A stretch of DNA of 64,000 nucleotides from IMG/VR virus record IMGVR_UViG_2695420859_000012. One strand, 5' to 3'. Source of the DNA: a virus. Its lineage: Duplodnaviria > Heunggongvirae > Uroviricota > Caudoviricetes. A program made the position numbers and the translations under genes. Shown piece by piece: positions 4,509 to 18,015 of the stretch (position 1 is its first letter; every line of letters starts with the position of its first letter). Below the pieces are notes generated by a model that was not told the origin of the DNA, searched no databases, and worked only from the letters and a program-made list of their open reading frames with translations.

Positions 4509-4509
4509 A

Positions 4510-4983: not shown

Positions 4984-5318
4984 ATATTCGCCCCTACTTC
5001 AAGATGCCCAGGTCTTCCTCGTAGCCCCCAGCGGCGATGAACACTGGACACCTTTAATTTTTGACCTTCAAGGATCAGTACATCATCAAGTTGTACAGCC
5101 GCTTCTAAAGGGACAACTAACACAGCATCAAACAGCTCCAGACTCGCCTTACCACGACTACCAGAGCTATCAGCACGAACTGACGATTTCTCATTACTCT
5201 GTTCGAACTTAACCACGCCGACATTCGTCTTCCTGACGAATTGTAATTGCGCCTCACCGTAAACGTTCTTTGCGCCAAAGCGGTAGATCGCAATTTCTGT
5301 TTGCCATGAAATATTCAT
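4974..5318 (-). CDS. Phage head-tail adaptor / head closure protein (hypothetical)
   Basis: ORF in the structural operon. Start placed at the internal Met (MNISWQ) preceded by GGGAG; the track start is 5414. Confidence 0.4.
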   Translation of the reverse strand: MNISWQTEIAIYRFGAKNVYGEAQLQFVRKTNVGVVKFEQSNEKSSVRADSSGSRGKASLELFDAVLVVPLEAAVQLDDVLILEGQKLKVSSVHRRWGLRGRPGHLEVGANIWV

Positions 5319-5397
5319 GCTCTCTCCCTGTTGTTGTCGGTCGCTCTCATTACTGGCCAAAAAACCTTTCGACCAAAAGTAAATAATGCGACTGGCG

Positions 5398-6231
5398 TTA
5401 CGCACGGCGAACAATCATACGGTTGTTGATGTAACTGACCAGCAAGCGCCAGGTACTACGAGCCACATGCACGTTTGCAGCTTTACCGGTACGGTACATG
5501 TTGGTTGTTTCACCGATGGACTCTGACAAAATGCCATCCTCTCGTGCTGCGGCTACATCATTGCCATTTGCGATCTCACACGCTTCGTTGACAACGGCAA
5601 GCATCAACGCTTCTTTGAAGTAGTCAGGGAACTCTTCAAACTTCTCCTGCGTCATCTTTTCCCAATCGACTAAATCATGCCGGTACGCTCCATCTGCTTC
5701 CCACGGAATGTCATACACATTCAGCATATTTTGAGGGCGATCGTATCGGTCAAAGTCGATACGTAGAATTTTGCGGATTGAGAACGGTAAAGTTTTAATT
5801 CGTCTGGTAGCCTCAATGAGACGCTTGCGCATTAAGCCTTCACCATCCGACAGCAAAGTGTCCCCATTCAGCATATCGATCGCCTGCATTTGAGCATCAG
5901 CGACAGTTGCAAACGACTGTTCTGGTATCGACAGTTCAAAACTATTCAGCAGAACATACATTTGCCGCTCTTCATGCGTCAGACCCGATGCAACAGCCTT
6001 CACAATGACGTACCGCAGATCTCGCTCTTTCTCAGAGAGCTGGTTATATTCAGCCGACACGACAACCGGAATCGACATTTGACCGCTGGTAATTTCTAGC
6101 GGCTCGCCATCAACGAGAATAGCCCCGGTGCTGTCCTTTACTGTGTAGGTGGCAGATTCGATATCCAGCACGTTGAAGGCAAATGAAAGAGAAACAGCTT
6201 CACCGCTACGATACGAGTCGATCTGCGCCAT
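5398..6231 (-). CDS. Phage structural protein (hypothetical, 277 aa)
   Basis: Long ORF within the co-directional structural operon, translationally coupled to the downstream gene. Confidence 0.5.
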   Translation of the reverse strand: MAQIDSYRSGEAVSLSFAFNVLDIESATYTVKDSTGAILVDGEPLEITSGQMSIPVVVSAEYNQLSEKERDLRYVIVKAVASGLTHEERQMYVLLNSFELSIPEQSFATVADAQMQAIDMLNGDTLLSDGEGLMRKRLIEATRRIKTLPFSIRKILRIDFDRYDRPQNMLNVYDIPWEADGAYRHDLVDWEKMTQEKFEEFPDYFKEALMLAVVNEACEIANGNDVAAAREDGILSESIGETTNMYRTGKAANVHVARSTWRLLVSYINNRMIVRRA

Positions 6232-6665
6232 TACTCACCGCCTTGTGCTTTCAGGATGCCGTCAATCATTTCGACAATTCCTTTCGCTTTGACACCAACC
6301 TGATTACCAATAACTCGTAGACCGGCAATACCTTCGTTGTCTGCAATTGACTCCAGCTCTTCTCGTGTGAAAGTCTGGATCTGTTTGGCCGGTTCATCTG
6401 GTGTCCCACGTTTCATTGGCACAATGTCAGGCGCTGCTGGCTCGGTAATCAGGTCTGCTGTCAATTCACCACGATCACTGTATGCGGCAGACGGAGAAAC
6501 ATTTTTGCCCTCTACTGTTGACGCTCGCATTGAAGCACAAATCCTCTGCTGATCGATAAAAGGCAACTCCGCTACGGATACCCCGTTCTCGAACTGAACG
6601 CCACACAGCATTCCCGAATAACCGGAAAATTGCGGTTCTAATAAAACAATTTTTGCTGGTTTCAT
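6231..6665 (-). CDS. Phage structural protein (hypothetical, 144 aa)
   Basis: ORF with a start/stop overlap to the next gene at 6231. Confidence 0.45.
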   Translation of the reverse strand: MKPAKIVLLEPQFSGYSGMLCGVQFENGVSVAELPFIDQQRICASMRASTVEGKNVSPSAAYSDRGELTADLITEPAAPDIVPMKRGTPDEPAKQIQTFTREELESIADNEGIAGLRVIGNQVGVKAKGIVEMIDGILKAQGGE

Positions 6666-6709: not shown

Positions 6710-7630
6710 TTATTCCTGTGCGGCAGTAACTTCTACAGTTGCTGTCGCTTTGTGGCTACCATCTTGGGTAGTAACCTCGATTGTGGCAGTACCAGCCGCA
6801 ACACCAGTTACAACACCGGTTTCGCTGTCAACCGTTGCAAACTCGGTATTTTTGGATTCCCAAGTAACGGTTTTATTTGTGGCTCCTGCCGGCTCGACAT
6901 TTGCTGTCAGCTGAACAGTTTTGTTTGCCTCAACGGTTGTGCTATTTGGGTCGATTTCGACGCCGGTAACAGCCACAACAGGCGCAGTTACTTCCACCGT
7001 TGCAGTTGCCTTTTTGCTGCCATCTTGGGAAACGATCTCAATCGTCGCAGTGCCAACTTCTACACCAGTAACGTTCCCGCTCTGGTCTACCGTTGCCTTA
7101 TCTTCATTTTTGGAAGACCAGGTAACAGCCTTATTCGTCGCATTTGACGGCTGAACATTCGCTTTCAGACTGACTGATTTCCCTTTCTCAACAGACGTTG
7201 ATTCTGGCGTTACCGTTACGGATTGAACGGCTACCGGATTTACGGTGACTTCCACTGAAGCGGAAAGCTGGGTTTCCTGATCAGTTGCAGTAATTTTTAC
7301 TTTGCCTGGTGCTACGCCAGTTACTAATCCAGTGCCGTTAACGGTTGCAATTTGGTCATTGGCTGACTTCCAGGTGAATGAACTGGCACTCTTACCCATA
7401 CTAATACCTGCACTAAGTTGAACAGTTTTCCCAACCAAAACTGACGGTGAAGCCGGGGTTATGTTTACGGATTGGGAGAGGGGAACCGCCTGCAAACAAG
7501 CAGATAGCTGACTTTGTTGCCGCTCGGTTAAAGGTTCATCGGAGATAGAATTGGTAAATCCGGCACGGCACATATGCCCCGTAAAATCCGAAAATGCCTC
7601 TTCCGTAATCTTCATCTTTTGTTCTGGCAT
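6710..7630 (-). CDS. Ig-like (Big_2 x3) domain protein, probable capsid decoration / surface protein
   Basis: Three tandem repeats of the Big_2-type pattern (KTVQLTANVEPAGATNKTVTWESKN...ATVD...GVVTGVAAGTATI). Located directly after the major capsid gene and its terminator. Confidence 0.6.
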   Translation of the reverse strand: MPEQKMKITEEAFSDFTGHMCRAGFTNSISDEPLTERQQSQLSACLQAVPLSQSVNITPASPSVLVGKTVQLSAGISMGKSASSFTWKSANDQIATVNGTGLVTGVAPGKVKITATDQETQLSASVEVTVNPVAVQSVTVTPESTSVEKGKSVSLKANVQPSNATNKAVTWSSKNEDKATVDQSGNVTGVEVGTATIEIVSQDGSKKATATVEVTAPVVAVTGVEIDPNSTTVEANKTVQLTANVEPAGATNKTVTWESKNTEFATVDSETGVVTGVAAGTATIEVTTQDGSHKATATVEVTAAQE

Positions 7631-7642
7631 TTCTCGCTCCTA

Positions 7643-7672
7643 CAAAAAGGGTGGGCGTATAGCCCACCCTTT
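7643..7672 (-). terminator. Rho-independent terminator downstream of major capsid gene
   Basis: Reverse-strand hairpin AAAGGGTGGGC-TATA-GCCCACCCTTT followed by TTTTTG, between the capsid stop (7704) and the next start (7630). Confidence 0.6.
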
Positions 7673-7703
7673 AACATAGATAACTACTTATCTACTACAC
7701 TGA

Positions 7704-8579
7704 TTAAATTTTTACATTGGTCAGTGCAGCGATAGCCTTATCGTGCTTATTCGCCAGAGAGCAGTACCACTTCACACGGGTACGTACTGCGTCTTTGTTC
7801 TGTACAGTACCAATGTTTTCAACAACGATACCTGCGTTATCGCCGCCATACAGACCAGTAACGCCGTTCTCTTCTGACAGATGCAAGCAGTAGATGCTTG
7901 CTTTGCCAGAATCAGTCGGGATGAAGTCGTTGATGATGAACGGAACGCCGTTATGACACAGCATCGGACGACCGAAGTTCTCCATCATGATTTCAGACGG
8001 ACCTACGTTTACTGTACGCAGCAGCGCACGGTAAGCACGAAGGTGCTCTGAACGCATCATGATGCAGTCAGCACCAAGATCTTTCACCGCATCGACCAGT
8101 TCGTCGAACATAGAGAAAGTCATAGATGCACCGGCGATATCGATCTTCTGATCTGCGTGCATCAGGCGTGGAATGCCGTCAAACGCTTTGTTGTTGGTGC
8201 TGGAGTCACCCAAAATCAGATTGCGACGGAACGCACGAGCCAGACCTTTAACTTTCTGACGAACCTGAATAGCCAACTGGTTATTGGTGTCGGCCATAGT
8301 GGTTGCCAGGAATTTATCAACGTCTACGTCACCAGCCAGAATACGCAGTTTCGCAACGCATTCTTCGAAGGTTGCTGCACCTTCCGGGATGGTGTCGTTA
8401 ACGTCGATGAAGGTAGCCTCACTCAGCGTTTTTTCACGGTTGTACAGATATGCCTTTGAAGTAATTTTCATAAAAGGCAGGATGGCAAACAGGTCATCGC
8501 GATCGATGATGGTTTCAATCACGCCCTGTTCAAGTTCGTTGTTAGACAGCTTTTCAGCTTCTTCACGCAGTAATGGCAT
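7704..8579 (-). CDS. Major capsid protein (putative)
   Basis: 291-aa ORF immediately downstream of the scaffold-like gene and followed by a strong terminator, the typical capsid arrangement. Assigned by position only. Confidence 0.55.
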   Translation of the reverse strand: MPLLREEAEKLSNNELEQGVIETIIDRDDLFAILPFMKITSKAYLYNREKTLSEATFIDVNDTIPEGAATFEECVAKLRILAGDVDVDKFLATTMADTNNQLAIQVRQKVKGLARAFRRNLILGDSSTNNKAFDGIPRLMHADQKIDIAGASMTFSMFDELVDAVKDLGADCIMMRSEHLRAYRALLRTVNVGPSEIMMENFGRPMLCHNGVPFIINDFIPTDSGKASIYCLHLSEENGVTGLYGGDNAGIVVENIGTVQNKDAVRTRVKWYCSLANKHDKAIAALTNVKI

Positions 8580-8604
8580 CTATCAATTCCCTTTGATTTA
8601 GATG

Positions 8605-9492
8605 TTACTTAAGTCCAATTTTCCCCAGACCGGAGGCCAACTTATCCATAGTCGACTTGTTCTTCGGTTGGGATATTGTGTAGGTCGATTTGGAATGTGA
8701 GCCTACACCCTGCTTGGCTTCGCTACGCATCAATGCGTCAGCTTCCGGATCTGCCCGCACAATGCGTTCAATCGCGGATTCAAACGGCAACGGCTTACCT
8801 TCACCGTCAACCAGAACAGCTCGTTCTTTATGACCTGCCGGTTTGTCATAACCCACTACGCTACCGTCTTCACCCACTTCAAAATGAGAACCGTAGATCA
8901 CGCGGGCTTTTGCCGGAGTCATCAGAACTTTGTCACGTAGGAAGAGAGAGTTACTGAAGGAAGCGCCCACGGTCATCTCGACTAATTGAGATTTCAGTGA
9001 TGCGTTTTCACTTTCCAGTGCTGCATAACGTTCGTCACGCTGTGCCAGCTCTGCCTGGTGTGCTTCGATCATCTGTTTTTTAACAGCATCGAACTCACCA
9101 CGACGCTCCAGTTCAGCTTGCTCCGCCTCACGACGTGCGTTTTCTGCGGCCTGTTCAGCTTCTAAAAGCTGGCGAGCACGCGCCGGGTCGATTTCACCGT
9201 ACTGAGCAAGCTGATCGGCCAATGTGCGCTCTTTCTCTTTGCGCTTCATGTTCTCTTTCAGCAGTTCAGCACCAGCTTTCTTGGTTTTGCGAAGTTCGGC
9301 CAGTAACTCTTCATGAGTCATGCCAGCGTATTCGTCATCACCCTTCGGCTGCTCTTTTTGTTCACCCTGCTTGTCAGGATCTTGTGTACTCTGCTCATTA
9401 TCAGCAGCTACACCGCCAGCGCCCCCACGCTCATGCGCTTCAGCAACATCCATCAGACCACGACGGGCCAAAAGCATTTGCCACAGTTTCAT
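8605..9492 (-). CDS. Scaffolding protein (putative)
   Basis: Charged, Ala/Glu/Gln-rich protein with predicted coiled-coil character (AEQAAENARREAEQAELERRGEFDAVKKQMIEAHQAELAQRDERYAALESENASLKSQL), located between portal and capsid genes. Confidence 0.55.
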   Translation of the reverse strand: MKLWQMLLARRGLMDVAEAHERGGAGGVAADNEQSTQDPDKQGEQKEQPKGDDEYAGMTHEELLAELRKTKKAGAELLKENMKRKEKERTLADQLAQYGEIDPARARQLLEAEQAAENARREAEQAELERRGEFDAVKKQMIEAHQAELAQRDERYAALESENASLKSQLVEMTVGASFSNSLFLRDKVLMTPAKARVIYGSHFEVGEDGSVVGYDKPAGHKERAVLVDGEGKPLPFESAIERIVRADPEADALMRSEAKQGVGSHSKSTYTISQPKNKSTMDKLASGLGKIGLK

Positions 9493-9513: not shown

Positions 9514-11088
9514 TCACTCGTTCTCTTGAGTAGATGAGTCCCCATTCCCTCGGGGTTGATCTTGCCCGCTTTCTTGGGCTGCACCACGATCATAAGTAAG
9601 TACTGACTTATTTTCAAGGGTATTTAGATCATTTTTTGGCGGAAAATTCAAGAGATCTTTATCAAATTCCTTTTTCATCGCCTCAGTAATGTTCGGGAAA
9701 ATCTTCTCAATAAGCATTTCCATCTGGTGACGACGTACAGAGTCCGGTGCCTGAAGTAATGACAGTTTCTCGGCAACAGAAAATTCATCTGTAAGGCCAC
9801 GAATATCGAAACTTTCTGGATACGCAATTAAAGAGTGGTCTTCGTCCAGATCTACCCCCATCCATTTCGCAACCAGTAGCATGATTTGGCGTTCAGCCCT
9901 TTCCAGACGCTCTGCTTTTGTGACAAGCAAGCTATTTACACGCTGGAAGTCATACATTTTTGCGGCACCAGATGAGTTATCAATTCCCTGTGCGTTGTCC
10001 TGCTTCGTTCGCTCACCAGCGACACCAACTGAATGGTAGATTTCGTTAATCACCGTCTTAATCGTAGTGATGATCATCTGAGCTTGTTTCGGGTCTGGTG
10101 ACAAATAAAACGGCTGGTTTCCACCTTCAGAATCGTAGGTGAAGACTCGCTTTGTGCCCATTTCAAGCACTTTAGTGTGGTTTTCATCACCAGGTAAAAG
10201 CGACTGTACCGGTATAGCCAACTGGCTAAATGTCTGATCCTGAATAATGGCATCAAGGTTTGACAGATAGTTTGCAACCGCACGATCAAGATAAGCGATA
10301 TCATCGATCAACGATGGGCTGAAATACGGTGATTCACTTTCTCCAATACAATCAACAGGAAACACAGGAACTACGCTGAGATTATGCTCACCGCTATCCT
10401 CTAAAATAACTTTTGCCTGACGGCGACCTGCTCCACCAGCGCCCTTCTTCACTTCCTCACGGAACAGATACCACTCGTTTTGTGTCCACAGACGATAACG
10501 TTGGTATTCCTGACCTGTAGAAGTAAAAGGATCTGCATCATCACGAGCGACTTCCACAATTAACGCCCACAACATATTCCCGTCGTCGTCCCATGCCACA
10601 TCCAGCATTTGCTGAGGTGAAATCCAGTAGGCGTAGGCGCGAGCATCTTTCTTTTTCTCGTCAGCTACTGACTCAACATCACCACTCATCGTGCTATCGA
10701 CAACAACCCATATGCGACCGTAAATAGACGACTGCAAATCAATAGCGGCCATAAATGAGTCAATAGAGGCATTCTGGCGAGTCGCACGTTTCCAGAAATT
10801 GCGGATCTGCTCTGGTGCCTCTTCGATATTTCTATGAATGTCTTCTTTAAAGAGATATTTGTTGATGAGGTTTACCACCTCACGAGTGTGGTTGAAGCGA
10901 TAAGCACGCTCAACTCGCTCCTTAAACTCCTGATCTCCCTCTTTAAAGTAACGAAAGATATTGTCTGTAAACCAACCACGCCCGCCAGCGTAAGTGCTGG
11001 CGAGGAAGTCCCAATGTTCTTTTTTCTTTTCGTATTCCGGGTGGCGTCGCGCCACCAGATCCTTAATTTGTTTGTCGTTCAATTCCAT
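9514..11088 (-). CDS. Portal protein (putative)
   Basis: 524-aa ORF immediately downstream of the large terminase gene in the same operon; size and position fit a portal. Confidence 0.6.
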   Translation of the reverse strand: MELNDKQIKDLVARRHPEYEKKKEHWDFLASTYAGGRGWFTDNIFRYFKEGDQEFKERVERAYRFNHTREVVNLINKYLFKEDIHRNIEEAPEQIRNFWKRATRQNASIDSFMAAIDLQSSIYGRIWVVVDSTMSGDVESVADEKKKDARAYAYWISPQQMLDVAWDDDGNMLWALIVEVARDDADPFTSTGQEYQRYRLWTQNEWYLFREEVKKGAGGAGRRQAKVILEDSGEHNLSVVPVFPVDCIGESESPYFSPSLIDDIAYLDRAVANYLSNLDAIIQDQTFSQLAIPVQSLLPGDENHTKVLEMGTKRVFTYDSEGGNQPFYLSPDPKQAQMIITTIKTVINEIYHSVGVAGERTKQDNAQGIDNSSGAAKMYDFQRVNSLLVTKAERLERAERQIMLLVAKWMGVDLDEDHSLIAYPESFDIRGLTDEFSVAEKLSLLQAPDSVRRHQMEMLIEKIFPNITEAMKKEFDKDLLNFPPKNDLNTLENKSVLTYDRGAAQESGQDQPRGNGDSSTQENE

Positions 11089-11114
11089 TTGAATAACCTT
11101 AGATAATTACCTAC

Positions 11115-12371
11115 CTATCGAGAACCACCAAGAATAACACGGTTTTTGACTGGATACCTACGATGTACTGGATAGCCCAATGCGTCTGCACTATGCTCAA
11201 TGCCACCTGTCTTATCCATATCTCGTGTTCCAGGCTTGTAGATGACTTTTTCCAGTGAATCAATCAAATGCTTGCACTTCGGATCGATATACAACCGGAT
11301 ATCTCCAGATGCGGTCATCAGCATTCGGTTAACAGCATTAACACGATCCGCAATTGGCGGGTGCTTTTTCGAATAATCGACACGTAAGAATCCCTTCTCT
11401 TTGAATATGTCGACGTCAGACTCCCCGCGAGCATGTTGGCGATAAGCACCTGCCGGATCTGGAAATACCGTTATCTGTGATTTCCAGCGCCAGAAGCGTC
11501 TCTCAAGCTCATCACAAACCTCTGCCGTGTTAGAGGAAAAGAGCACCAATTCATCAATTGCCCATAGCTCACCATTTGGCTGAGGTTGCAAAATTACTGA
11601 AGACATCGGGTCAATGTTGAAGTCCTGCCCTACCCATATAGGCAACCGAGGGTTGAACTGAAGCGGTTTTACATGCACGTTACGATCGAACGGGTAGTAA
11701 ACGCGCCCGGACATGTTCTCAAAGCTCGCCAGGTACTCCTGAGCGAACGATTTCGGGTCCATATCGTTCTTAGCAGCTTCAATTTCCGCCGTAGGCACAA
11801 ACGGAGAATCGGCAGTTACAAACTGCCAGCTCTTCCACTGTCCCTTTCTTTGCAGCTCTACGTTCTGGCCTATAGTCCACAGTTTGTGAAATTCCGAGAA
11901 ACCTTTTGGCGTACCAATGATAAGTGCACCGCCGCGTGTCGATGAAAGAGTAGGTCGTAACACCTTGTACCAGGTGTCAGCCTTCATATCCTGAAATTCA
12001 TCAAGCACTACAAAATGCAACGCTACGCCGCGCAGAGTGTCAGGCTTATCAGCACCTTTGAGGGCGATCTCCGAACCGTTCTTCAACACGATTGTCATCG
12101 TGGTGTCGTTCTTTTTCCTAACCCACTTACGAGGCAGAACTTCCTGTAGATCGTCCCACAAAATCTGGCGAGCCATCTGGTAAGTAGGAGCGACATACCA
12201 GACCCTTTGCTTTTTTTCCTTTGCCGCCGCACGAATAATAGTGGAGATCGACAACCGGGATTTTCCCCAGCGTCGACCAGCACAAACAACTTTAAATCGA
12301 TGCGGAGACTGGAAGACTTTCATCTGTCCAGAATGCAGTTGCACAAGACTGAGCGAGGACGGGATTGCCAT
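11115..12371 (-). CDS. Terminase large subunit
   Basis: N-terminal Walker A (VVCAGRRWGKS) and Walker B (HFVVLDEF), followed by a nuclease-size C-terminal domain. Start overlaps the stop of the upstream small terminase gene. Confidence 0.75.
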   Translation of the reverse strand: MAIPSSLSLVQLHSGQMKVFQSPHRFKVVCAGRRWGKSRLSISTIIRAAAKEKKQRVWYVAPTYQMARQILWDDLQEVLPRKWVRKKNDTTMTIVLKNGSEIALKGADKPDTLRGVALHFVVLDEFQDMKADTWYKVLRPTLSSTRGGALIIGTPKGFSEFHKLWTIGQNVELQRKGQWKSWQFVTADSPFVPTAEIEAAKNDMDPKSFAQEYLASFENMSGRVYYPFDRNVHVKPLQFNPRLPIWVGQDFNIDPMSSVILQPQPNGELWAIDELVLFSSNTAEVCDELERRFWRWKSQITVFPDPAGAYRQHARGESDVDIFKEKGFLRVDYSKKHPPIADRVNAVNRMLMTASGDIRLYIDPKCKHLIDSLEKVIYKPGTRDMDKTGGIEHSADALGYPVHRRYPVKNRVILGGSR

Positions 12372-13003
12372 TATTCGTCCTCCCCTTCACTTCCATCATC
12401 TGTCGCATCAAATTCGCTTAGAGCTTCTTCTTCCAACGTCTCAAGCAATTCGTCATCGATGATTTCAGGCTCGTCGTCTTCCTGACGTAATTTCGCCACC
12501 TGGGAAGGCGTAAGCTCACCAAATACCAGGTTCGGAATTTCTTCCTCGTCATTTTCCGCATGATCCATGCCCAATGCTTTGGACGAAACTTCAAAGCATT
12601 TTGCAAGGGTATTACTGGCTCTCTGTAAGCTCTTGAGAGAATCCTCAATCGCCCCTAAAGGCTTACCCTCACGTTTGGCCGTAGTGACTTCGACCATCAC
12701 CATCTGCCCCAACGCATACGCCCAGCCGTCATAACGTGTACGACGTTCTTCTATCTTTTCCGCACGGGCTTTAGCGCGAAGCTCTGCGTCAGATTTAAGA
12801 GACTCACGAACCATCTTCCCAACAGAGTCCGCGCCTTTCTCTAATCCTCGCTTTTTGAAATGTCTGGAGAGTGTTTCACGACGAATGCCGTACTCTTCCT
12901 CCAGCTTTGAGAGTGTATATTCGCCTGACGTCCATTTGGCTTCAGCTTCGGCCCACTCCGCTGGTGTCAGGCGAGTTTTTACCTCGTCTTTTTCGACCGT
13001 CAT
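12371..13003 (-). CDS. Terminase small subunit (putative)
   Basis: N-terminal HTH-like segment (YTLSKLEEEYGIRRETLSRHFKKRG) and a highly acidic C-terminus; translationally coupled to the large terminase. Confidence 0.6.
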   Translation of the reverse strand: MTVEKDEVKTRLTPAEWAEAEAKWTSGEYTLSKLEEEYGIRRETLSRHFKKRGLEKGADSVGKMVRESLKSDAELRAKARAEKIEERRTRYDGWAYALGQMVMVEVTTAKREGKPLGAIEDSLKSLQRASNTLAKCFEVSSKALGMDHAENDEEEIPNLVFGELTPSQVAKLRQEDDEPEIIDDELLETLEEEALSEFDATDDGSEGEDE

Positions 13004-13117
13004 AGATCCCTCTAAAACACACAGAGCGCGTCCATGCGCTCTAAAACAACTTGTTTACTGCATTTTCTAACCAACTTGTTTTCTGGGTTGTTTAATTAGG
13101 TCTGGGCATGTCTTATT

Positions 13118-13177
13118 AAGCCTGCTTCCGTATATATTTAATAAGTTACTTATTATTTATATATACAGAAGCAGGTC
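13118..13177. repeat. Long AT-centred palindromic element (copy 1 of 2), upstream of the small terminase gene
   Basis: CCTGCTTCCGTATATAT...ATATATACAGAAGCAGG inverted repeat; a near-identical copy lies at about 37312-37371. Confidence 0.6.
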
Positions 13178-13199
13178 TTTAAATAAGCTCCCAGACCGA

Positions 13200-13466
13200 T
13201 TACATCACCAGTAACTTCGCTTTGGCTCGACCTAAAGTGGTTAACCCAAGAGTTCGGCGGTGATAGCGATTGTCACTGCGTTGGCGCGTATGCCCTTTCT
13301 CCACAAGCCCCTTTTTTATCAGAGCGCGAATTGAGAACTGGATACTTTGCTTGGTTGTCTTGTACGGCAAAACTTCAAGCAATTCGTCCAGATCAAGTAG
13401 ATAACCTCGCTCATAACCGAGATTGAGCGTTTTGATGATGTCCTTTTGTTTATCGGTTAACGTCAT
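13200..13466 (-). CDS. Small winged-helix-like DNA-binding protein (hypothetical)
   Basis: 88-aa basic protein, last gene of the ParB/ABC/GNAT operon; HTH-like segment QSIQFSIRALIKKGLVEKG. Confidence 0.4.
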   Translation of the reverse strand: MTLTDKQKDIIKTLNLGYERGYLLDLDELLEVLPYKTTKQSIQFSIRALIKKGLVEKGHTRQRSDNRYHRRTLGLTTLGRAKAKLLVM

Positions 13467-13475
13467 GGCAAATCC

Positions 13476-14366
13476 TTATGCCGGTAAAGCAATTTCTAAC
13501 GGTTTATCCAAAGGTTGTTTGTCGAATGCCAGCAGTGGCAGCGTGTCAGGCAGTCGACGACCAAAGTCAGGGTTTCGATACACCCCATACAACGGAGACG
13601 TAAAGCTCAGGTTGTGAATGTCCTTGAGCAACTTCACAATGCTGGCCTCGTCCACCAGACTGTCGGCAATGTCCTGAATCGTCGTGCCACGATTCCGCCC
13701 AGCTTTTGCCAGGGAACTGTTCTTGTGGTAGTCCGCCACCAGATCACGCAGTGCACGGCGACGACGAGACTCGCTCATTGCGAACAACTCTTTGACGATC
13801 GCCTCGTTATCACCCGGGTCGGAACGGAAATGGCGCTGGAATACACGCAGTGCACTTTCATAGCTCTTCGGTCGCTCAGGGCGGATGAACTTAAACCCTG
13901 CTTTCATGGCGAAGGGATTGTATTTGCTCATCGAGGACTGGATCTCAATGATTGGCCGGTCATGCATCCTGCTAACCAGGTTAATCATTCGATAAGAGAC
14001 GCCTACGCCACGATACTGAGTATCCACAACTGAGCGACTGATCACCGCAAAGTTGTTATTCACGTACCGACCCCAGTACTGGTTAGCCACGGTGGTATTA
14101 GTGGTTGGTTTCAACTTAGGAAACATGCGGTGGCGAGGTGCCAACAGTAGTTTCGGGTAAGCCATAACCACGACGCCCACCAGACGGTCATCAAGTTCGC
14201 AGCGATAGTAAGTTGGCGCGAAAGGTTTGCCGTCTGTTTTGTAGTGAAGCGACTTAAGAGCGTGCCAGTCCTCTACAGTTCCCTTTGTAACAGTCATTCG
14301 CTCCAGAAAGTCCAGATGACGCGGAAACTCTTCAGGGCGGTAGCGTTTAATGATGATGTCCGTCAT
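13476..14366 (-). CDS. GNAT-like acetyltransferase-fold protein with C-terminal extension (hypothetical)
   Basis: Segment resembling the GNAT acetyl-CoA-binding motif (SVVDTQYRGVGVSYRMINLV); start overlaps the stop of the upstream ABC ATPase gene. Confidence 0.35.
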   Translation of the reverse strand: MTDIIIKRYRPEEFPRHLDFLERMTVTKGTVEDWHALKSLHYKTDGKPFAPTYYRCELDDRLVGVVVMAYPKLLLAPRHRMFPKLKPTTNTTVANQYWGRYVNNNFAVISRSVVDTQYRGVGVSYRMINLVSRMHDRPIIEIQSSMSKYNPFAMKAGFKFIRPERPKSYESALRVFQRHFRSDPGDNEAIVKELFAMSESRRRRALRDLVADYHKNSSLAKAGRNRGTTIQDIADSLVDEASIVKLLKDIHNLSFTSPLYGVYRNPDFGRRLPDTLPLLAFDKQPLDKPLEIALPA

Positions 14367-15028
14367 GAATGGACCTCATCGTGACTACCATTGCGATATT
14401 CCACCTTCACGCGTTCTTTGTAGTGCTTGGTGATCTGCATATCCGGGCGCAGCGCGTTCTTCAGGTCTTCGTGAGTCGTCGCCACCATTACCGTCGCACC
14501 AACCTTTCGAGCGGCACGCTGGAGGTTAGACGCCACAACCTGAGCGGTTACACGGTCGAGAACAGCGCCGAACTCGTCAGCAGCCCACACTTTAGCGCCT
14601 GACTCAATCAGTTTGGCAATCTTGAGACGATATTTCTGGCCGTCTGACATTTCAGAAGGCTTGCGAACAAACAGATATGCATCGTTCAGACCAGCCATAG
14701 ATAACAACCCAAGCGCATCACTGGTCGTTTTGCCCAACTGATCGATGACGTTAACCTCATTATCGAAGGTAAAATCATCGATGGAGGCTACAGACAGCCC
14801 TTCATCCTTCATCTGTCGTTGCAACTCGCGCAGCACAACGGATTTGCCGGAACCGGATTGGCCGGTGATGTACACCACATCGCCCTGCTTCACTTCCAGC
14901 TCCAGATTGTCGTAAAGCGTCCACTCTTTTTCGTCCAGGCCAAGCCCGAACGACTCAGCGATTTCCAACGTGCGCGTGGTTTTATTTACGCGTGTCTGAA
15001 ACGATACGTTGATGATGTATTTGCTCAT
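14363..15028 (-). CDS. ABC-type ATPase (stand-alone nucleotide-binding domain)
   Basis: Walker A (GQSGSGKS), ABC signature-like MSDGQKYRL, Walker B (VWAADEF). Confidence 0.6.
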   Translation of the reverse strand: MSKYIINVSFQTRVNKTTRTLEIAESFGLGLDEKEWTLYDNLELEVKQGDVVYITGQSGSGKSVVLRELQRQMKDEGLSVASIDDFTFDNEVNVIDQLGKTTSDALGLLSMAGLNDAYLFVRKPSEMSDGQKYRLKIAKLIESGAKVWAADEFGAVLDRVTAQVVASNLQRAARKVGATVMVATTHEDLKNALRPDMQITKHYKERVKVEYRNGSHDEVHS

Positions 15029-15693
15029 GCAGCCATCTCCCCGGAAGAGATCTTCTCCGCATATGCCACAAATGCGTCTACCCCGCTTTCTCCCGTCATT
15101 TCTTCCATGTGGGCAAGCAAATCACCAACAACAATGGCAGAGCCAGCAGGGAGCGTTTTAAAGCCCAATACGTCGACAACACGTACTTCTTCCGCTGCAA
15201 CTTCACGACTGATCTCGGTGTGTTCATCCTTCTGTCGTTTAGTTTCTTCGCCAAGATCGATAACTAGCGAGTCGGTGTCCATTTCTTCTGTCATACTGCC
15301 AACGAGAACATTCAACTCACGCTCTTCAAAGCCGAAAACCTCGATATCGTCCAGAACAAGCGACTCAAGCTCTTTCTGTAGCTTAATTGCATCGTAATCA
15401 ATGCTGGCAAGTCGGTTATCTTCAAGGCGCTTCGCACGAACCTCGTCATCACTGAGATCATCGCGAACAATAACCGGTACGCGCTCAAGTCCAGCAAAAA
15501 TTGCAGCCTCACGGCGGCCGTGGCCAGTAATAATTACGTCGTTCTTATCGACCGTAATTGGCTGGTCAAATCCGCGCTTTTTAATGGCTGCGGCTAGATC
15601 TCGGATCTGCTGTTCATCATGCTTTTTGGCATTCATCTCATAGGGAATAAGATCTGCCGGGTCGCGATATACGATTTCAAACTTTTTGGTCAT
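15025..15693 (-). CDS. ParB-like nuclease domain protein
   Basis: ParB N-terminal domain motif (ITGHGRREAA); start placed at the internal Met overlapping the stop of the upstream gene (track start 15726). Confidence 0.6.
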   Translation of the reverse strand: MTKKFEIVYRDPADLIPYEMNAKKHDEQQIRDLAAAIKKRGFDQPITVDKNDVIITGHGRREAAIFAGLERVPVIVRDDLSDDEVRAKRLEDNRLASIDYDAIKLQKELESLVLDDIEVFGFEERELNVLVGSMTEEMDTDSLVIDLGEETKRQKDEHTEISREVAAEEVRVVDVLGFKTLPAGSAIVVGDLLAHMEEMTGESGVDAFVAYAEKISSGEMAA

Positions 15694-16391
15694 TACATAC
15701 GCTCCTTGTAGTAGTCGACCAGCCACACCAGAGCCTCACCAGCGTTCTCCATTTCATTACCGGTGTTAATAGCCTGCTCTTTGATGATGTTTTTTATGGT
15801 TTCTGCAACACGATCTGACGCATCGAAAGTTACTTTGAAGCGCATGGTCTGATGTTCCGCACCCACACGTTCGGTTTTCTCTCGTTTGTCGGTATCGACA
15901 GGCTCATCACTACCACGAGACAACGCCTCCAGTGCTTCAAGGTCGATTGCCGCCTCTTTTGCTAAAACCATCGAGATTTCGTCGTCATACGGGGCGATTT
16001 CAGACAGTTGATAGTCAAGTTCTGACTGAATTTCTTCAATGAAGCGTTGCAATGCGATTTGGTCGTCTTCACCGTATCGCTCGTTGTCCACCAGTGACAT
16101 CTGTTTAGCTACGACATCGCTAATTTTGCCCACAGAAAGCACCGGAACCGTTGAAATTCCTTGCTCAATAGCAGCACGCCAGCGATGTTCGCCGCCGAGG
16201 ATTTCAAAAAATCCATCTTCAAGTTCACGAGCCAAAATTGGCTTAAAAAAGCCCAATTTTTCGATAGAACCTTTCAGTTTTTCAAAATTCTGCGCACCAA
16301 CCGAATTGGTGTTCCAGGTATTCGGGCGAAGGTTGGCAACATCAACCTGCAAAATCGTGATTTTTACATCCATTTTATTGCTACAATCCAC
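15693..16391 (-). CDS. ParB-like nuclease domain protein
   Basis: ParB N-terminal domain motif (ILGGEHRWRAA); first gene of the operon, divergent from the helicase gene. Confidence 0.6.
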   Translation of the reverse strand: MDCSNKMDVKITILQVDVANLRPNTWNTNSVGAQNFEKLKGSIEKLGFFKPILARELEDGFFEILGGEHRWRAAIEQGISTVPVLSVGKISDVVAKQMSLVDNERYGEDDQIALQRFIEEIQSELDYQLSEIAPYDDEISMVLAKEAAIDLEALEALSRGSDEPVDTDKREKTERVGAEHQTMRFKVTFDASDRVAETIKNIIKEQAINTGNEMENAGEALVWLVDYYKERM

Positions 16392-16455
16392 TAAGTAATC
16401 ACTTACTTATTATAATAGCCAAATAACATACAAAAGGCACTAAGGAAAGAGGTTT

Positions 16456-18015
16456 ATGACTGTTCGGATTGTATCTAACGCAGTAAATGCGCTTATTTCT
16501 GGCGCAGATGACAAGGTAAAGCAACTGGTGCAGCAAATGTTGAGCTACGAAGTCGAGACTGGCGACTGGAAGGGCACAAGCACGATGTTCAACTGGAGTA
16601 AAAACTCGTTCCCTGCTGGCTTTGCCAAGCCTGTAGCGGCGAACTTGAACAAGGCGGGCATCAAATGTGTTCATATCCGCAAAGACAAAGCCCCGGCGCT
16701 TGGTAAACCAAATCCGGCGGTTAACCCATTCCCATACAATCCTGATTATGCGTATCAGGATCAGACTGTGGAAACACTGGTTCGAGAGGGAATGATGATT
16801 GCGCAGATCGCTACTGGTGGCGGGAAATCTAACGTTGCCTGCAAAGCAGCTGCACGTATCGGTCGAATGACATTATTTTTAACAACCCGCTCTGTTCTGA
16901 TGTTTCAAATGGCCGAAAACTTCCAGAGATCCATCGACTACCGCGCCGAAAATGGCGAACCGTGGTTAAAAGACCAAAAGGTTGGAGTCATTGGCTCGGG
17001 TGAGTTCCAGGTATCACGACATATCAACGTCGCTACAGTTCAAACTCTTGCAAGTTTCCTCGAAGAACCACCACGCGATGCAACACCAGATAAGAAAAGC
17101 TACCACCTCAAACGTCGGGAGTTGGTGAAACGCTTCCTTTCAAGTGTCTCTCTTCTTATTCTGGAAGAGGCGCATGAGTCTTCAGGCTCAAATTTCTATG
17201 ACATCGCCAGATTATGTGTGAACGCAGACTATCGTCTGGCGCTTACAGCCACGCCGTTCATGAAGGATTCGACGGAAGCCAACATGCGCCTGATGGCGGT
17301 GGCCGGGCGAATTGAAATTAAAGTCACAGAAAAGTACCTGATTGATCGAGGCATTCTGGCAAAGCCGTACTTCCTTTATCATAAAGTTGCCTACAAGCCA
17401 GACGAGGCCAGAATCAAGGCCGAACTTGCCAACAAACACCTCAATTTTAGAGTTGGTATGAGCACCGCCTACCAAAAGGCTTATCAGTTGGGGATCGTGT
17501 ATAATTTGGGACGTAACGAGGCCATTGTTCGCGAAGCATTGCTCTATAAGCAACATTCTCTCAATTGTATGACTCTGGTTCGTCTTAAACGCCACGGGCA
17601 AATCCTGATGGAAATGATGAAAGAGTCCGGCCTTAGAGTTGACTTCATCTATGGGGAATCTAACCAGGCGACAAGGCAAGCAAAGCTGAACAGTTTAGCG
17701 TCTGGAGAAATAGATGTTTTAATAGGCTCGACTATTCTGGATGTCGGTGTTGATGTGCCAAGCGTTGGTGCGGTCATTCTTGCTGGTGGTGGGAAAGCAG
17801 AAGTTGAAATGAGGCAGCGTGTCGGTCGTGGCTTACGAGCCAAAAAAAATCAGGCAAACGTGTGTTTTATCACTGATTTCATTGACATTAGCAACAAATA
17901 CCTGTTGTCTCACTCTTATGAGCGAAAACACATCATCGACACCACACCTGGCTTTGCAGAAGGTGTATTGCCTATTGATGGAGCATTCGATTTTGGAGTT
18001 CTGAAACGAGATTAG
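16456..18015 (+). CDS. Superfamily 2 (DEAD/DEAH-box type) helicase
   Basis: Walker A (ATGGGKS), DEAH-like motif II (LILEEAHES), motif III (ALTATP), motif VI (RQRVGRGLR); AGGAAAGAGG RBS before the ATG. Confidence 0.75.
   Translation: MTVRIVSNAVNALISGADDKVKQLVQQMLSYEVETGDWKGTSTMFNWSKNSFPAGFAKPVAANLNKAGIKCVHIRKDKAPALGKPNPAVNPFPYNPDYAYQDQTVETLVREGMMIAQIATGGGKSNVACKAAARIGRMTLFLTTRSVLMFQMAENFQRSIDYRAENGEPWLKDQKVGVIGSGEFQVSRHINVATVQTLASFLEEPPRDATPDKKSYHLKRRELVKRFLSSVSLLILEEAHESSGSNFYDIARLCVNADYRLALTATPFMKDSTEANMRLMAVAGRIEIKVTEKYLIDRGILAKPYFLYHKVAYKPDEARIKAELANKHLNFRVGMSTAYQKAYQLGIVYNLGRNEAIVREALLYKQHSLNCMTLVRLKRHGQILMEMMKESGLRVDFIYGESNQATRQAKLNSLASGEIDVLIGSTILDVGVDVPSVGAVILAGGGKAEVEMRQRVGRGLRAKKNQANVCFITDFIDISNKYLLSHSYERKHIIDTTPGFAEGVLPIDGAFDFGVLKRD

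Follow-up and report, generated by a model that had tools for sequence, protein, structure and literature searches.

TmcA and NAT10 are ATP-dependent RNA cytidine N4-acetyltransferases in which a GNAT domain coupled to an NTPase domain acylates a nucleic-acid base. Phage Mu makes a GNAT-fold enzyme late, Mom, that modifies adenine in DNA. The GNAT gp48 of phage PaMx11 acetylates a base in polymeric DNA, 5-aminomethyl-dU (PMC8989533, where NAT10 is also cited). The thymine dioxygenase 5mYOX176 needs a ParB-like protein encoded beside it, ParB176, for activity on double-stranded DNA; phage ParB176 is made up of an N-domain that binds NTP and a C-terminal domain, with nothing in it that is obviously DNA-binding, and clusters of ParB-dependent dioxygenases often adjoin terminase genes (O'Toole et al., PNAS 2026, PMC13229309). 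Fusions of the ParB-CTPase fold are known as well, with methyltransferases among phages and, in a bacterial protein, with an acetyltransferase (Kaljevic et al., PNAS 2025, PMC12704722). COG2401, or 'MK0520', is an uncharacterised 'ABC-type ATPase fused to a predicted acetyltransferase domain', and our literature search found no functional work on this family.

The DNA analysed here, a 64,000-nucleotide stretch of a tailed virus (the window), carries a five-gene module that can be compared with each of these systems. Its ATPase and GNAT-fold protein are clear homologues of the two halves of COG2401/MK0520, with which they share an N-terminal FGLG motif, Walker A, an LSDGQKYR-type signature, HY[KR], R-G-x-G-x-[GSA] and invariant Glu and Tyr residues, but in the window two overlapping genes encode the enzyme, the helical insert of its GNAT part is longer, and two ParB-like genes and a gene for a probable winged helix-turn-helix (wHTH) protein are attached. 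In comparison with 5mYOX176 the enzyme is ABC-GNAT acyltransferase-like instead of an Fe/2-oxoglutarate dioxygenase and is accompanied by two ParB-like genes. The ParB-methyltransferase fusions (phrog_498; MTase_II of PADLOC), phage-borne as well, likewise combine the ParB fold with an enzyme that transfers a chemical group, whereas the module has no methyltransferase domain and its GNAT transferase is a separate polypeptide coupled to an ABC ATPase. Identity of the GNAT protein to Mom is 11-12%, no closer than to generic GNATs, and Mom has neither an ABC ATPase nor a ParB partner. The homology shown with TmcA/NAT10 is that of the GNAT fold; the NTPase of the module is an ABC ATPase and not a RecD-like helicase domain. 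No genes of the 5-hmdU pathway were found among the ten other window ORFs scanned. Like ParABS systems, the module has ParB N-terminal domains of the CTPase fold in which box II and box III-like motifs are seen, but its operon encodes no ATPase of the ParA type, a ParB HTH is not recognisable, its ParB-like proteins fall below the cutoff of the TIGR00180 partition-protein model (43 versus 58.45 bits), and the block also occurs in integrated prophages. It is thus not a canonical parAB system, as the sequence-only reading had already held.

Organisation and conservation of the module

Table 1. Position of the module and of its flanking features in the window.
Feature	Position	Strand	Remarks
SF2 (UvsW-like) helicase, divergent	16456..18015	+	Pfam ResIII, DEAD, Helicase_C
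Divergent intergenic region, 64 bp	16392..16455	.	between ParB-like 1 and helicase
ParB-like 1	15693..16391	-	232 aa, GTG start
ParB-like 2	15025..15693	-	222 aa from ATG; longest ORF 15726..15025 from GTG
Stand-alone ABC-type ATPase	14363..15028	-	221 aa
GNAT-fold acyltransferase-like protein	13476..14366	-	296 aa, pI 9.8
Small basic protein, probably wHTH	13200..13466	-	88 aa, pI 10.1
Imperfect palindrome, 99 nt	13099..13197	.	inverted repeats I1, I2; between module and terS
Two AACAACTTGTTT-type repeats	13043-13093	.	repeat search D1, I3; just upstream of terS
G+C-rich hairpin, then T-run	13043-13022	-	just upstream of terS
TerS-like DNA-binding protein, 210 aa	12371..13003	-	phrog_867 2.2e-100; acidic C-terminus
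Terminase large subunit (TerL)	11115..12371	-	Pfam Terminase_6N 3.1e-9; phrog_2, phrog_10250
Portal protein	9514..11088	-	phrog_145 1.6e-140

The module is a translationally coupled operon that is directed toward the probable genome end or packaging site and lies beside terS, terL and the portal gene (Table 1). This agrees with the earlier description of five coupled genes upstream of the terminase: they are minus-strand ORFs with start/stop overlaps, and the junctions are, in order, TAATG (1-nt overlap), ATGA, ATGA and a 9-nt spacer, the ATPase gene overlapping both of its neighbours through ATGA. ParB-like 2 almost certainly starts at the ATG at 15693, because the SSU5 annotation agrees and the match to phrog_930 (1.2e-112) begins there, at residue 12 of the longest ORF.

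The module stands just before the palindromic gap and the TerS, TerL and portal genes of an SSU5-like phage-plasmid. As single-stranded DNA the palindrome folds with -27.9 kcal/mol (z -9.2), and it contains the point at which the linear GenBank entries for phages SSU5 and Cyrano terminate (window 13138/13139), so that it probably represents a genome end or packaging site. The repeats next to it are candidate protein-binding sites; the G+C-rich hairpin is a candidate terminator, and a weak one, since terminator-like sites in the region do not exceed the count in shuffled sequences. At the other end of the operon, the module promoter presumably lies in the divergent intergenic region, where TATTATAAT is found about 30 nt upstream of the GTG of ParB-like 1; a consensus promoter scan of this region returned nothing above chance.

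The five genes are conserved in SSU5-type phage-plasmids, and their occurrence as a block is far beyond chance. Together with the flanking helicase, TerS and TerL they form a colinear series in 76-80 of the 80 related viral contigs compared, answering positively the question of co-conservation raised before; in the same contigs the ATPase and GNAT genes are as conserved as TerL. The helicase is co-conserved with the module throughout the relatives of this phage group, being present at 76 of the 80 loci, and takes the same position in SSU5, Pseudomonas phage nickie, Rhizobium phage RHEph10 and a prophage in a 3.27-Mb contig (L084), all of which carry the five-gene block as well. TerS directly precedes TerL in all relatives. 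The sequence of the block is not new, as each of the five proteins matches PHROG families (2e-44 to 1e-164); no functional study was found in the literature searched.

The ABC ATPase and the GNAT-fold protein

The ATPase matches Pfam ABC_tran (5.8e-13), phrog_293 and phrog_11143, its PDB sequence matches are ABC nucleotide-binding domains, and it has Walker A (GQSGSGKS, 56-63), signature (SDGQKYR, 128-134), Walker B (VWAADEF, 147-153) and H-loop (ATTHE, 183-187) motifs. It is thus a classical ABC ATPase and not of the ParA type, as had been proposed. The GNAT-like fold proposed for the 296-aa protein is upheld. The motif R119-x-x-G122-x-S124 is invariant at the acyl-CoA-binding motif position and reads R-x-x-G-x-S/A in the family; further invariant residues include H41-Y42-K43, R78, R111, E141 and Y260/Y263. 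A helical insert (about residues 169-254) separates the GNAT core from the last two strands. Other annotators have already given this protein the name COG2401/MK0520.

A profile of the 296-aa family found 948 relatives, hundreds of which are single ABC-GNAT polypeptides, the form that the enzyme takes in most relatives; many have 450-500 aa, with Pfam ABC_tran in the N-terminus and the GNAT part at about residues 200-480. Residues 2-220 of one fused protein (P0185) are 48% identical to the window ATPase, and the same residues are invariant in the alignments of split and fused forms. The ATPase and the GNAT protein are the split halves of a widespread single-chain ABC-GNAT enzyme, COG2401/MK0520.

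The ParB-like proteins and the small basic protein

Two tandem ParB-like proteins had been predicted, and both exceed the Pfam ParB_N cutoff of 26.3 bits. ParB-like 1 (pI 4.6) has an N-terminal ParB/Srx (ParB-CTPase fold) domain (3.3e-13, 49.9 bits) with box II GGEHRWRAA at residues 66-74, matches phrog_723 (2e-79) and aligns with Spo0J of T. thermophilus (1vz0, 2.6e-9); ParB-like 2 (1.5e-8, 35.0 bits) has box II TGHGRREAA at residues 56-64. The C-terminal half is acidic in ParB-like 1 and very acidic in ParB-like 2, and profile searches found no recognisable HTH or other DNA-binding domain in either. The best matches of ParB-like 2 are to the ParB portion of fusions with methyltransferases (phrog_498, 5e-32; PADLOC MTase_II, 2.9e-17), and in tblastn it also hits ParB genes in Streptococcus phiNIH1.1, Pasteurella Pmp13 and Lactococcus P335. 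It is the counterpart of the single ParB beside ABC(-GNAT) in other phages, while ParB-like 1 is an extra copy specific to the SSU5/nickie/RHEph10 group.

The 88-aa protein matches phrog_900 (2.1e-44), its gene directly follows the GNAT gene and is co-conserved with it, and nickie, RHEph10 and prophage L084 each have a homologue at the corresponding place. The earlier winged-helix call is the weakest of the domain calls: a single-sequence model (pLDDT 73) superposes on the winged helices of LexA, Fur and MecI at 1.2-2 A, but Foldseek gives E>0.1 and the profile matches are sub-threshold (LexA_DNA_bind 0.05; Sta1/Lrs14 0.003-0.007). The protein is probably a wHTH.

Distribution in other phages and archaeal viruses

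ParB genes that overlap ABC(-GNAT) or lie directly against it occur in SSU5-like phages, nickie, RHEph10, prophage L084, Gordonia BiggityBass, Rhodococcus Jace, Leptospira LE3, Pasteurella Pmp13, Lactococcus P335 and Streptococcus phiNIH1.1, and the order ParB then ABC(-GNAT) just upstream of the terminase genes is found in phages of Proteobacteria, Actinobacteria, Firmicutes and Leptospira. At three further loci (L121, L137, L157) ABC-GNAT is directly followed by a ParB gene, and in two Bathyarchaeia loci (L166, L168) a single ORF comprises an N-terminal ParB-like part, ABC and GNAT, the ParB part being below the cutoff of Pfam ParB_N in L166 (3.7e-5) and found in L168 only by a custom ParB HMM. 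ParB-like 2 is thus a recurrent partner of ABC-GNAT, adjacent in many bacterial phages and fused in some archaea. Most archaeal-type viruses have ABC-GNAT without ParB or wHTH (80 diverse viral contigs, ParB in 1), and ParB-like 1 and the small wHTH-like protein are lineage-specific additions.

Possible functions of the module

We consider it possible, with a probability of roughly 40%, that the module is a late-made, DNA-directed, ATP-dependent acyl-transfer machine acting on viral DNA, by analogy with ParB-dependent phage DNA-modifying enzymes and Mom of Mu; that the five genes encode one machine is proposed just as tentatively. The GNAT protein keeps a residue at every acyl-CoA-binding and catalytic GNAT position and is therefore taken as an acyl transferase. 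Acyl chemistry is supported by the fold, the R-x-x-G-x-S/A motif and the invariant E141 and Y260/Y263, and also by enzymes for the production or modification of acyl or amide groups that are encoded beside relatives: Formyl_trans_N in BiggityBass and a Porphyromonas phage, aspartate decarboxylase (2e-33) and CoA_transf_3 in Jace, and Amidoligase_2 (1.6e-47) in Fredinandcohnia and Thermincola prophages and one further locus (L177). DNA as the target is supported by the basic pI of both the GNAT and the wHTH-like protein, by family-B DNA polymerases fused or adjacent to relatives (P0181, P0205, Enterococcus phage 9184), by a C-terminal TFIIB-like domain on one ABC-GNAT relative (P0155), and by the closeness of ParB-like 2 to the ParB of DNA-methyltransferase fusions. 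Against this stand the acidic ParB-like proteins without recognisable DNA-binding domain and a structural likeness to Mom that is generic for GNATs (12% identity, E 4.5e-5). The block of SSU5-like phages contains no donor-making enzyme, and DNA modification is not documented for any module-carrying phage in the literature searched. Conservation at the level of TerL is typical more of core replication or morphogenesis genes than of anti-restriction accessories, and the most general linkage is to TerL, not ParB, which fits packaging at least as well.

The main rival, unlikely in our estimate, is a packaging accessory in which ABC-GNAT, the ParB-like proteins and the wHTH protein work with the terminase, acylating TerS, TerL, portal or a DNA-bound host protein, or readying or marking the site of packaging or the end of the DNA. 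TerL is the gene directly before the fused one in 46 of 80 diverse archaeal-type viral contigs and at 24 of 63 archaeal genome loci, the module immediately precedes terS/terL in at least 10 bacterial phage lineages, the Pmp13 ParB/ABC-GNAT pair sits in the late operon between lysis genes and terS, and the window module, with its TerL-like conservation, lies against the palindrome in which the SSU5 and Cyrano records stop. Packaging would leave unexplained, however, the formyltransferase, decarboxylase with CoA-transferase and amidoligase neighbours, the DNA-polymerase fusions and the location of some relatives in replication modules; in most tailed phages packaging proceeds with no protein of this kind, genes for DNA modification too are commonly placed next to the terminase, and no role of a ParB-like protein in packaging was found in the literature searched. 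The association with terminase is positional only and none of the proteins is a described terminase component, which speaks against their being ordinary terminase or structural proteins. The same small-molecule enzymes (PanD, CoA-transferase, formyltransferase, amidoligase) would suit a host take-over or counter-defence enzyme acting off DNA, in which ABC-GNAT acylates a host protein or small molecule (nucleotide, signalling nucleotide, polyamine or aminoacyl-tRNA) with ParB as NTP-binding regulator, and ParB/Srx-fold proteins have been proposed as nucleotide-degrading effectors in conflict systems (PMC10853773). This is quite unlikely, as strong conservation and a fixed place beside core genes differ from the fast turnover typical of counter-defence genes, the repeated ties to ParB, wHTH, TFIIB-like domain, DNA polymerase and TerL indicate a nucleic-acid context, and defence and anti-defence models match only the generic ATPase and ParB domains.

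Transcriptional control of late or packaging genes by the ParB-like (KorB-/VirB-like) and wHTH proteins, with ABC-GNAT as a cofactor-sensing element, is improbable. ParB-fold regulators such as KorB are known, the module lies just after the late activators in Lactococcus P335 (Alt) and Streptococcus phiNIH1.1, and the TFIIB-like fusion in an archaeal relative and the repeats and palindrome before terS would fit; yet no HTH is recognisable in the acidic ParB-like proteins, the conserved catalytic-type residues of ATPase and GNAT argue for enzymes, and most archaeal-type viruses dispense with ParB and wHTH. Of the four roles listed by the sequence-only reading, DNA or nucleotide modification is the one favoured here and packaging is viable, whereas the other two are contradicted. 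Unconventional plasmid partition, with two centromere-binding ParB proteins and an ABC ATPase replacing ParA, might be suggested by the phage-plasmid nature of the element, the ParB N-terminal domains and the use of 'parB' as a marker in SSU5-group screening, but is highly improbable and was rejected: the block resides in the prophage of the 3.27-Mb contig and in phages nickie and RHEph10, a reduced ParB and ABC-GNAT pair occurs in numerous phages that integrate and in proviruses of archaea, relatives have ATPase and GNAT in one fusion protein, the partition model is missed, and a separate ParA-like gene (Walker A KGGVGKS) lies at 29208-30308, 13 kb away. Least credible is a GNAT toxin with a small DNA-binding antitoxin (TacAT/AtaRT-like), a reading that the adjacency of the two genes had evoked and that was likewise rejected, since the 296-aa GNAT with its insert is the C-terminal half of an ABC-GNAT enzyme conserved like TerL; the small gene is downstream and absent from most relatives with a fused enzyme, and profile searches gave no match to toxin-antitoxin families.

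If the module is a DNA-directed acyl-transfer machine, GNAT would move an acyl group from acyl-CoA onto an amine of phage DNA, most likely one that is exocyclic on a base. The ABC domains, dimerising under ATP, and with them the NTP-binding ParB-like proteins could give the enzyme access to duplex DNA, the ParB role resembling that of the ParB-like activator of the phage thymine dioxygenase and the use of ATP resembling the hydrolysis that powers RNA cytidine acetylation by TmcA/NAT10. The basic wHTH protein might anchor the complex to DNA or direct it there, possibly to the repeats beside the packaging site. The modification would be placed on replicated DNA before or during packaging, and may protect it from host nucleases or allow the phage to recognise its own DNA.

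The Five-Gene Block of an SSU5-Like Phage-Plasmid

Over bases 11000-17000 the window shares 98-99% identity with Escherichia phages CMS-2020a, PhiR41_1 and Cyrano, compared with about 85% for Salmonella phage SSU5, and can therefore be assigned to an SSU5-like phage-plasmid. All five open reading frames proposed by a sequence-only reading are present as it described them, and the start/stop overlaps it noticed are real, as the junctions read TAATG, ATGA and ATGA followed by a 9-nt spacer, so that the five genes are translationally coupled. For the second ParB-like protein (ParB2) the ATG at 15693 is the most likely start rather than an upstream GTG, since SSU5 is annotated in this way and the PHROG match begins there. 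The five proteins belong to existing PHROG phage protein families (723, 930, 293, 886 and 900) and are thus not new as sequences; public records label block proteins "ParB-like partition protein" and "ABC transporter". By superfamily the block joins ParB/Srx, ABC and GNAT proteins, and within the uncharacterised COG2401 family it represents a split form.

Features of the block, the window and related loci
Feature	Sequence	Position	Strand	Remarks
Five-gene block	window	13200-16391	-	between divergent SF2 helicase gene and terS-like/terL/portal genes
ParB-like protein 1 (ParB1)	window	15693-16391	-
ParB-like protein 2 (ParB2)	window	15025-15693	-
ABC-type ATPase	window	14363-15028	-
GNAT protein	window	13476-14366	-	296 aa
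wHTH-like protein	window	13200-13466	-	88 aa
SF2 helicase gene	window	16456-18015	+	transcribed divergently from block
terS-like, terL and portal genes	window	13003-9514	-
Gap between wHTH gene and terS	window	13004-13199		palindrome, repeats, hairpin
99-nt imperfect palindrome	window	13099-13197		single-strand fold z -9.2
ParA-like ATPase	window	29208-30308	+	phrog_164; Walker A KGGVGKS; Mrp/MinD-like; window's only KGGVGKS ORF
720-aa protein	window	27017-29179	-	phrog_8598; divergent from ParA-like ATPase gene
DNA methyltransferase	window	31753-33438	-	561 aa; phrog_6263
Nucleotide-metabolism and repair block	window	42993-50805	-
Inserted small ORFs	L003 (SSU5)	7741-7995
Inserted small ORFs	L001 (relative)	5646-5981
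Inserted small ORFs	L002 (relative)	4336-4755 and 5393-5895
PanD (aspartate 1-decarboxylase, 2e-33) and CoA-transferase family III fragment	L092 (Jace)	7592-8703		directly after ParB and ABC-GNAT
Family-B DNA polymerase, ABC and GNAT	L096 (Enterococcus phage 9184)	2830-6346		polymerase directly 5' of ABC plus GNAT

Co-occurrence of the five genes, a point the sequence-only reading had raised, is borne out by SSU5, Pseudomonas phage nickie, Rhizobium phage RHEph10 and a prophage (L084) sitting in a 3.27-Mb metagenomic contig, all of which share the order opposite-strand helicase, ParB, ParB, ABC, GNAT, small protein, TerS-like, TerL and portal. At the protein level these relatives show only 29-58% identity, and some junctions hold small unrelated ORFs. 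The ORFs at the ParB/ABC/GNAT junctions of relatives measure 84-139 aa, one being a DUF2829 protein, whereas the window has direct ATGA overlaps, suggesting that the junctions of the block tolerate extra genes. In 80 closer viral contigs, obtained by a viral-contig scan with the split-GNAT alignment that returned close relatives only, all eight genes are colinear in 76-80, the missing cases being contig ends. At matched divergence in these contigs, identity amounts to 56-73% for ParB1, 64-78% for ParB2 and 59-70% for TerS, and to 86-89% for the ATPase, 80-90% for the GNAT protein and 87-91% for TerL; the ATPase-GNAT pair evolves like a core gene. For the 88-aa protein, the winged-helix call agrees with a geometrically good fit to the winged helices of LexA, Fur and MecI, but this fit is non-significant and the profile matches stay sub-threshold.

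The gap downstream of the block also holds two AACAACTTGTTT-type repeats, lying within 13043-13197, as well as a hairpin followed by a T-run. Both SSU5 and Cyrano have linear GenBank records whose ends fall at 13138/13139, about 9 nt off the palindrome centre, which suggests a physical genome end (cos) in the gap, provided that neither record simply took its orientation from the other. A scan for consensus promoters and terminators gave a site count not above that of shuffled sequence. Elsewhere in the window, the ParA-like ATPase and the 720-aa protein may make up the locus by which the phage-plasmid is really maintained as a plasmid. The methyltransferase provides the element already with at least one conventional DNA-modifying enzyme, and the nucleotide-metabolism and repair block encodes a nucleotide pyrophosphohydrolase-like protein, the small and large subunits of ribonucleotide reductase and an SbcC-like ABC ATPase.

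The ABC ATPase and the GNAT Protein as One Enzyme

The distinction drawn early on between a classical ABC ATPase and a ParA-type ATPase is confirmed by a complete ABC motif set, comprising GQSGSGKS, the signature SDGQKYR and an H-loop, and all PDB matches of the ATPase are to ABC nucleotide-binding domains. The family motifs are FGLGLDE at 27-33 and SDGQKYR at 128-134, and the FGLG and LSDGQKYR-type columns are invariant in two alignments of fused ABC-GNAT proteins (A2 and A4). The GNAT fold assigned to the 296-aa protein also holds, and Mom of phage Mu is among its structural matches. Compared with PDB sequences this protein yielded chance matches only (AlkD, E about 1), NCBIfam has no model for it, and PADLOC run on the block returned nothing beyond generic matches to ParB and ATPase models. 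The 296-aa protein already bears, in JGI and some phage annotations, the name of COG2401/MK0520, the single-chain ABC-GNAT family, for which the literature searched contained no relevant paper.

How are the two proteins related to each other? Searching 1.84 billion representatives with the 296-aa family profile gave 948 matches, which comprise close full-length relatives, short fragments and many proteins of 450-500 aa that carry the GNAT part at residues about 200-480. Pfam ABC_tran was found in the N-termini of 10/10 fused relatives tested, and the N-terminal half of the fused protein P0185 is 48% identical to the window ATPase. Moreover, the residues that never vary in the split family (H41, Y42, R78, R111, R119, E141, M146, F152 and Y260) are likewise invariant columns in the fused alignments, as are the residues of Walker A, signature, Walker B and H-loop. 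Within the split-family alignment (A1) H41 Y42 K43, R119, G122, E141 and Y260 are invariant, and A2 and A4 keep the counterpart H, Y, R, E and Y. Judged by sequence, the ATPase and the GNAT protein are two halves of one enzyme, encoded in the window not as one polypeptide but by two genes with an ATGA overlap; the same split exists in nickie, RHEph10, Lactococcus phage P335 and Enterococcus phage 9184. In the GNAT protein the acyl-CoA pyrophosphate-binding motif is conserved in position (R119-x-x-G122-x-S124, in fused forms R-G-x-G-x-G/A), the invariant Glu is located on the strand that bears the general base in Gcn5-type enzymes, and the invariant Tyr residues are on the penultimate strand; the catalytic and binding roles given to these residues are putative.

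Two archaeal relatives carry additional domains. P0155, from a Thaumarchaeota MAG (L097), has a C-terminal TFIIB-like domain, and P0164 contains an intein with a LAGLIDADG endonuclease inside the ATPase domain. Inteins are usually found in important, conserved proteins.

Linkage to the Terminase and Wider Distribution

The broadest linkage of ABC-GNAT is to the terminase. In Gordonia phage BiggityBass, Leptospira phage LE3, Pasteurella phage Pmp13, P335 and Streptococcus phage phiNIH1.1, terS, terL or both follow 3' within one to four small genes, Rhodococcus phage Jace being an exception with terS about 3 kb farther downstream; the ParB/ABC-GNAT pair of Pmp13 is part of the late operon, with the lysis genes on one side and terS on the other. 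When the fused alignment was run against one genome per prokaryotic species, 547 relatives emerged, and the best 80 are almost all from Bathyarchaeia or Nitrososphaeria/Aigarchaeota assemblies. Where at least 1.5 kb of upstream sequence was available, as at 63 archaeal loci, a TerL-family ORF (Pfam Terminase_6N 1.5e-19) is present at 40; at 24 it immediately precedes the ABC-GNAT gene on the same strand, and HK97-gp10-like and tail genes alongside TerL indicate that these loci are proviruses. Similarly, scanning IMG/VR yielded at least 565 relatives, and for the best 80 the ORF immediately upstream, at a gap of less than 200 nt, is TerL in 41 according to Pfam and in 46 according to a custom TerL HMM, and ParB occurs in 1/80.

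Exceptionally, the replication module houses the enzyme in Nonlabens phage P12024S, in a metagenomic SPbeta-like phage and in Enterococcus phage 9184, in the last case directly 3' of a family-B DNA polymerase. Two database proteins (P0181 and P0205) are family-B polymerase-ABC-GNAT fusions, from which the label 'DNA polymerase' on the GNAT gene of phage 9184 probably derives. Furthermore, in 80 IMG/VR contigs with the fused gene (L177-L256) the ABC-GNAT ORF ends less than 500 nt from the downstream contig end in 29, running off the contig in 18 of these, and is never less than 2 kb from the upstream end. This would be explained if the gene came last, ahead of the genome or provirus end, or if assemblies tended to break in its variable C-terminal part.

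The ParB-Like Proteins

Both proteins called ParB-like from the sequence score above the Pfam cutoff of 26.3 for ParB_N (49.9 and 35.0 bits) and contain a box II (GxxRxxA) motif, GGEHRWRAA in ParB1 and TGHGRREAA in ParB2. The partition-protein model TIGR00180 gave 43.3 and 43.0 bits (cutoff 58.45), both proteins are acidic with a pI of 4.5-4.6, and the search for the central HTH of partition-type ParB found little similarity, the region aligned with the Spo0J HTH being acidic in the window protein. Depending on the member, the ParB-CTPase fold binds CTP, ATP or GTP (PMC12704722).

A ParB gene overlaps or directly precedes ABC(-GNAT) in BiggityBass (genes 1 and 2), Jace (gp85, gp86), LE3 (gp16, gp17) and Pmp13 (0047, 0048). 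P335 encodes ParB, ABC and a short GNAT consecutively (Orf23, Orf24 and Orf25), and phiNIH1.1 encodes ParB and then ABC (p24, p25). In tblastn searches the single ParBs of other phages were found by ParB2 and not by ParB1, and ParB2 is also the window copy closest to the ParB part of phage ParB-methyltransferase fusions. In two Bathyarchaeia loci, L166 and L168, one continuous ORF comprises a ParB-like N-terminal part, ABC and GNAT, the ParB part being matched below cutoff by Pfam ParB_N in L166 (E 3.7e-5) and detected solely with a custom ParB HMM in L168; in three further Bathyarchaeia loci a ParB gene lies directly 3' of ABC-GNAT. Synteny of an HTH-less ParB gene with the enzyme extends to at least ten phage lineages, plus the ParB-ABC-GNAT fusion, and this fusion together with the conserved adjacency argues that ParB, ABC and GNAT act as one machine.

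Accessory Enzymes

Several relatives encode additional enzymes next to ABC-GNAT. A truncated formyltransferase is found 3' of the enzyme in BiggityBass and a Porphyromonas phage, and a GS-like amidoligase in Fredinandcohnia and Thermincola prophages and at locus L177. The PanD and CoA-transferase fragment of Jace, an unusual gene pair for a phage, could by their annotation together make beta-alanyl-CoA, rendering Jace a good candidate for a conspicuous adduct. In phage DNA hypermodification clusters, a constant transferase is likewise surrounded by variable acyl- or amide-making or decorating enzymes (PMC8989533), and this pattern argues for a chemical modification pathway and not for a purely structural role.

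At 4486-6490 of the phiNIH1.1 locus (L089), the gene after ParB and the ABC ATPase encodes an ASCH (PUA-like) protein, which takes the GNAT position. A diverged GNAT was considered and rejected, since the short GNAT that P335 encodes there shows no homology to this protein. Domains of the ASCH and PUA-like kind act on modified bases by binding or hydrolysing them, and the protein may also point toward base chemistry of nucleic acids.

Proposed Function and Alternative Explanations

What could be the target of such an enzyme? DNA would be the most economical guess, because the partners are DNA proteins (ParB, wHTH, the TFIIB-like domain, DNA polymerase, TerL), because the GNAT and wHTH-like proteins are basic (pI 9.8 and 10.1), and because DNA-base-modifying GNAT-fold enzymes exist, among them Mom of phage Mu, and PaMx11 gp48, which acts on polymeric DNA (PMC8989533). 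In addition, there are precedents for the involvement of ParB: a DNA dioxygenase acting on duplex DNA requires a phage ParB-like protein without DNA-binding domain, the ParB/dioxygenase clusters often neighbour terminase genes (PMC13229309), and catalogued fusions of the ParB fold include methyltransferases and an acetyltransferase (PMC12704722). In the mechanism proposed here, ATP-dependent dimerisation of the ABC domains and NTP-bound ParB-like proteins would allow the GNAT domain to reach an amine in duplex phage DNA, which it would acylate using an acyl-CoA as donor, while the wHTH protein would tether or target the complex and the reaction would take place late, on replicated DNA about to be packaged. 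To this mechanism as a whole we assign a probability of roughly 0.4. Doubtful, albeit compatible with the evidence, is the wider proposal that ABC-GNAT, helped by ParB in bacterial phages, is ancient in the tailed viruses of bacteria and archaea and carries out an undescribed DNA modification, an ATP-dependent N-acylation of bases that diversified in some lineages (beta-alanyl, formyl, amide-ligated) and proceeds in step with packaging.

Its strongest competitor is direct participation in packaging, where the enzyme would act on terminase, portal or the DNA end, as the universal linkage to TerL and the TerL-like conservation would suggest; the accessory enzymes of relatives and the cases in replication modules speak against it, and we regard it as unlikely. 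A target other than DNA, such as a small molecule or a host protein, seems distinctly unlikely, and a regulatory role still less probable. The unconventional partition module that the sequence-only reading had entertained is not borne out and has very little probability left, since the operon lacks an adjacent ParA with deviant Walker A (KGGxxK[ST]), the TIGR00180 scores stay below cutoff and the block is not confined to replicons that need active segregation, being found in the prophage of the 3.27-Mb contig and in the nickie and RHEph10 genomes. Its other suggestion, a toxin-antitoxin-like unit, we consider the least probable: type II pairs like TacAT, AtaRT or KacAT would combine a small stand-alone GNAT toxin with a small antitoxin in an autonomous two-gene unit of sporadic distribution, but here the GNAT protein has 296 aa, is ATPase-fused in relatives and is conserved like TerL, and the small partner gene is missing from most relatives. 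An ABC transporter was rejected because all operon neighbours are assigned soluble domains (ParB, GNAT, wHTH) and relatives fuse the ATPase to GNAT and not to a membrane domain; where public records speak of a transporter, the name has been carried over from other annotations.

The block thus qualifies neither as a ParABS system nor as an ABC transporter or a GNAT toxin-antitoxin pair. From its sequence it resembles in organisation the ParB-assisted DNA-modification modules 5mYOX-ParB and ParB-MTase, in which a virus-borne HTH-less ParB gene is likewise beside or fused to a group-transferring or oxidising enzyme, but differs in enzyme type. A module of ParB, ABC, GNAT and terminase is absent from the literature searched, in line with the early impression of an undescribed combination, and an earlier computational mention is possible.

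Implications

The module is widespread and ancient and lies beside one of the best-studied viral machines, and its sequences are already in databases under misleading names. Its practical value at present is better annotation, as neither transport nor plasmid partition should be read into these genes. If the proposed DNA acylation is true, genes labelled "ABC transporter" or "partition protein" in clinically common Enterobacteriaceae phage-plasmids, including the SSU5-like ones of E. coli, Klebsiella and Salmonella, would encode a nucleic-acid-directed acyltransferase machine, common to phages of Actinobacteria, Firmicutes and spirochaetes and to viruses of Bathyarchaeia and Nitrososphaeria. 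The known viral DNA modifications would then gain an enzyme class and probably a chemistry not seen before, and the finding would provide a second experimentally tractable case of the ParB fold as enzyme activator and give a function to an orphan COG. If instead the packaging machinery is the target, the tight and very wide linkage to TerL would mark an unrecognised accessory of a well-studied process.
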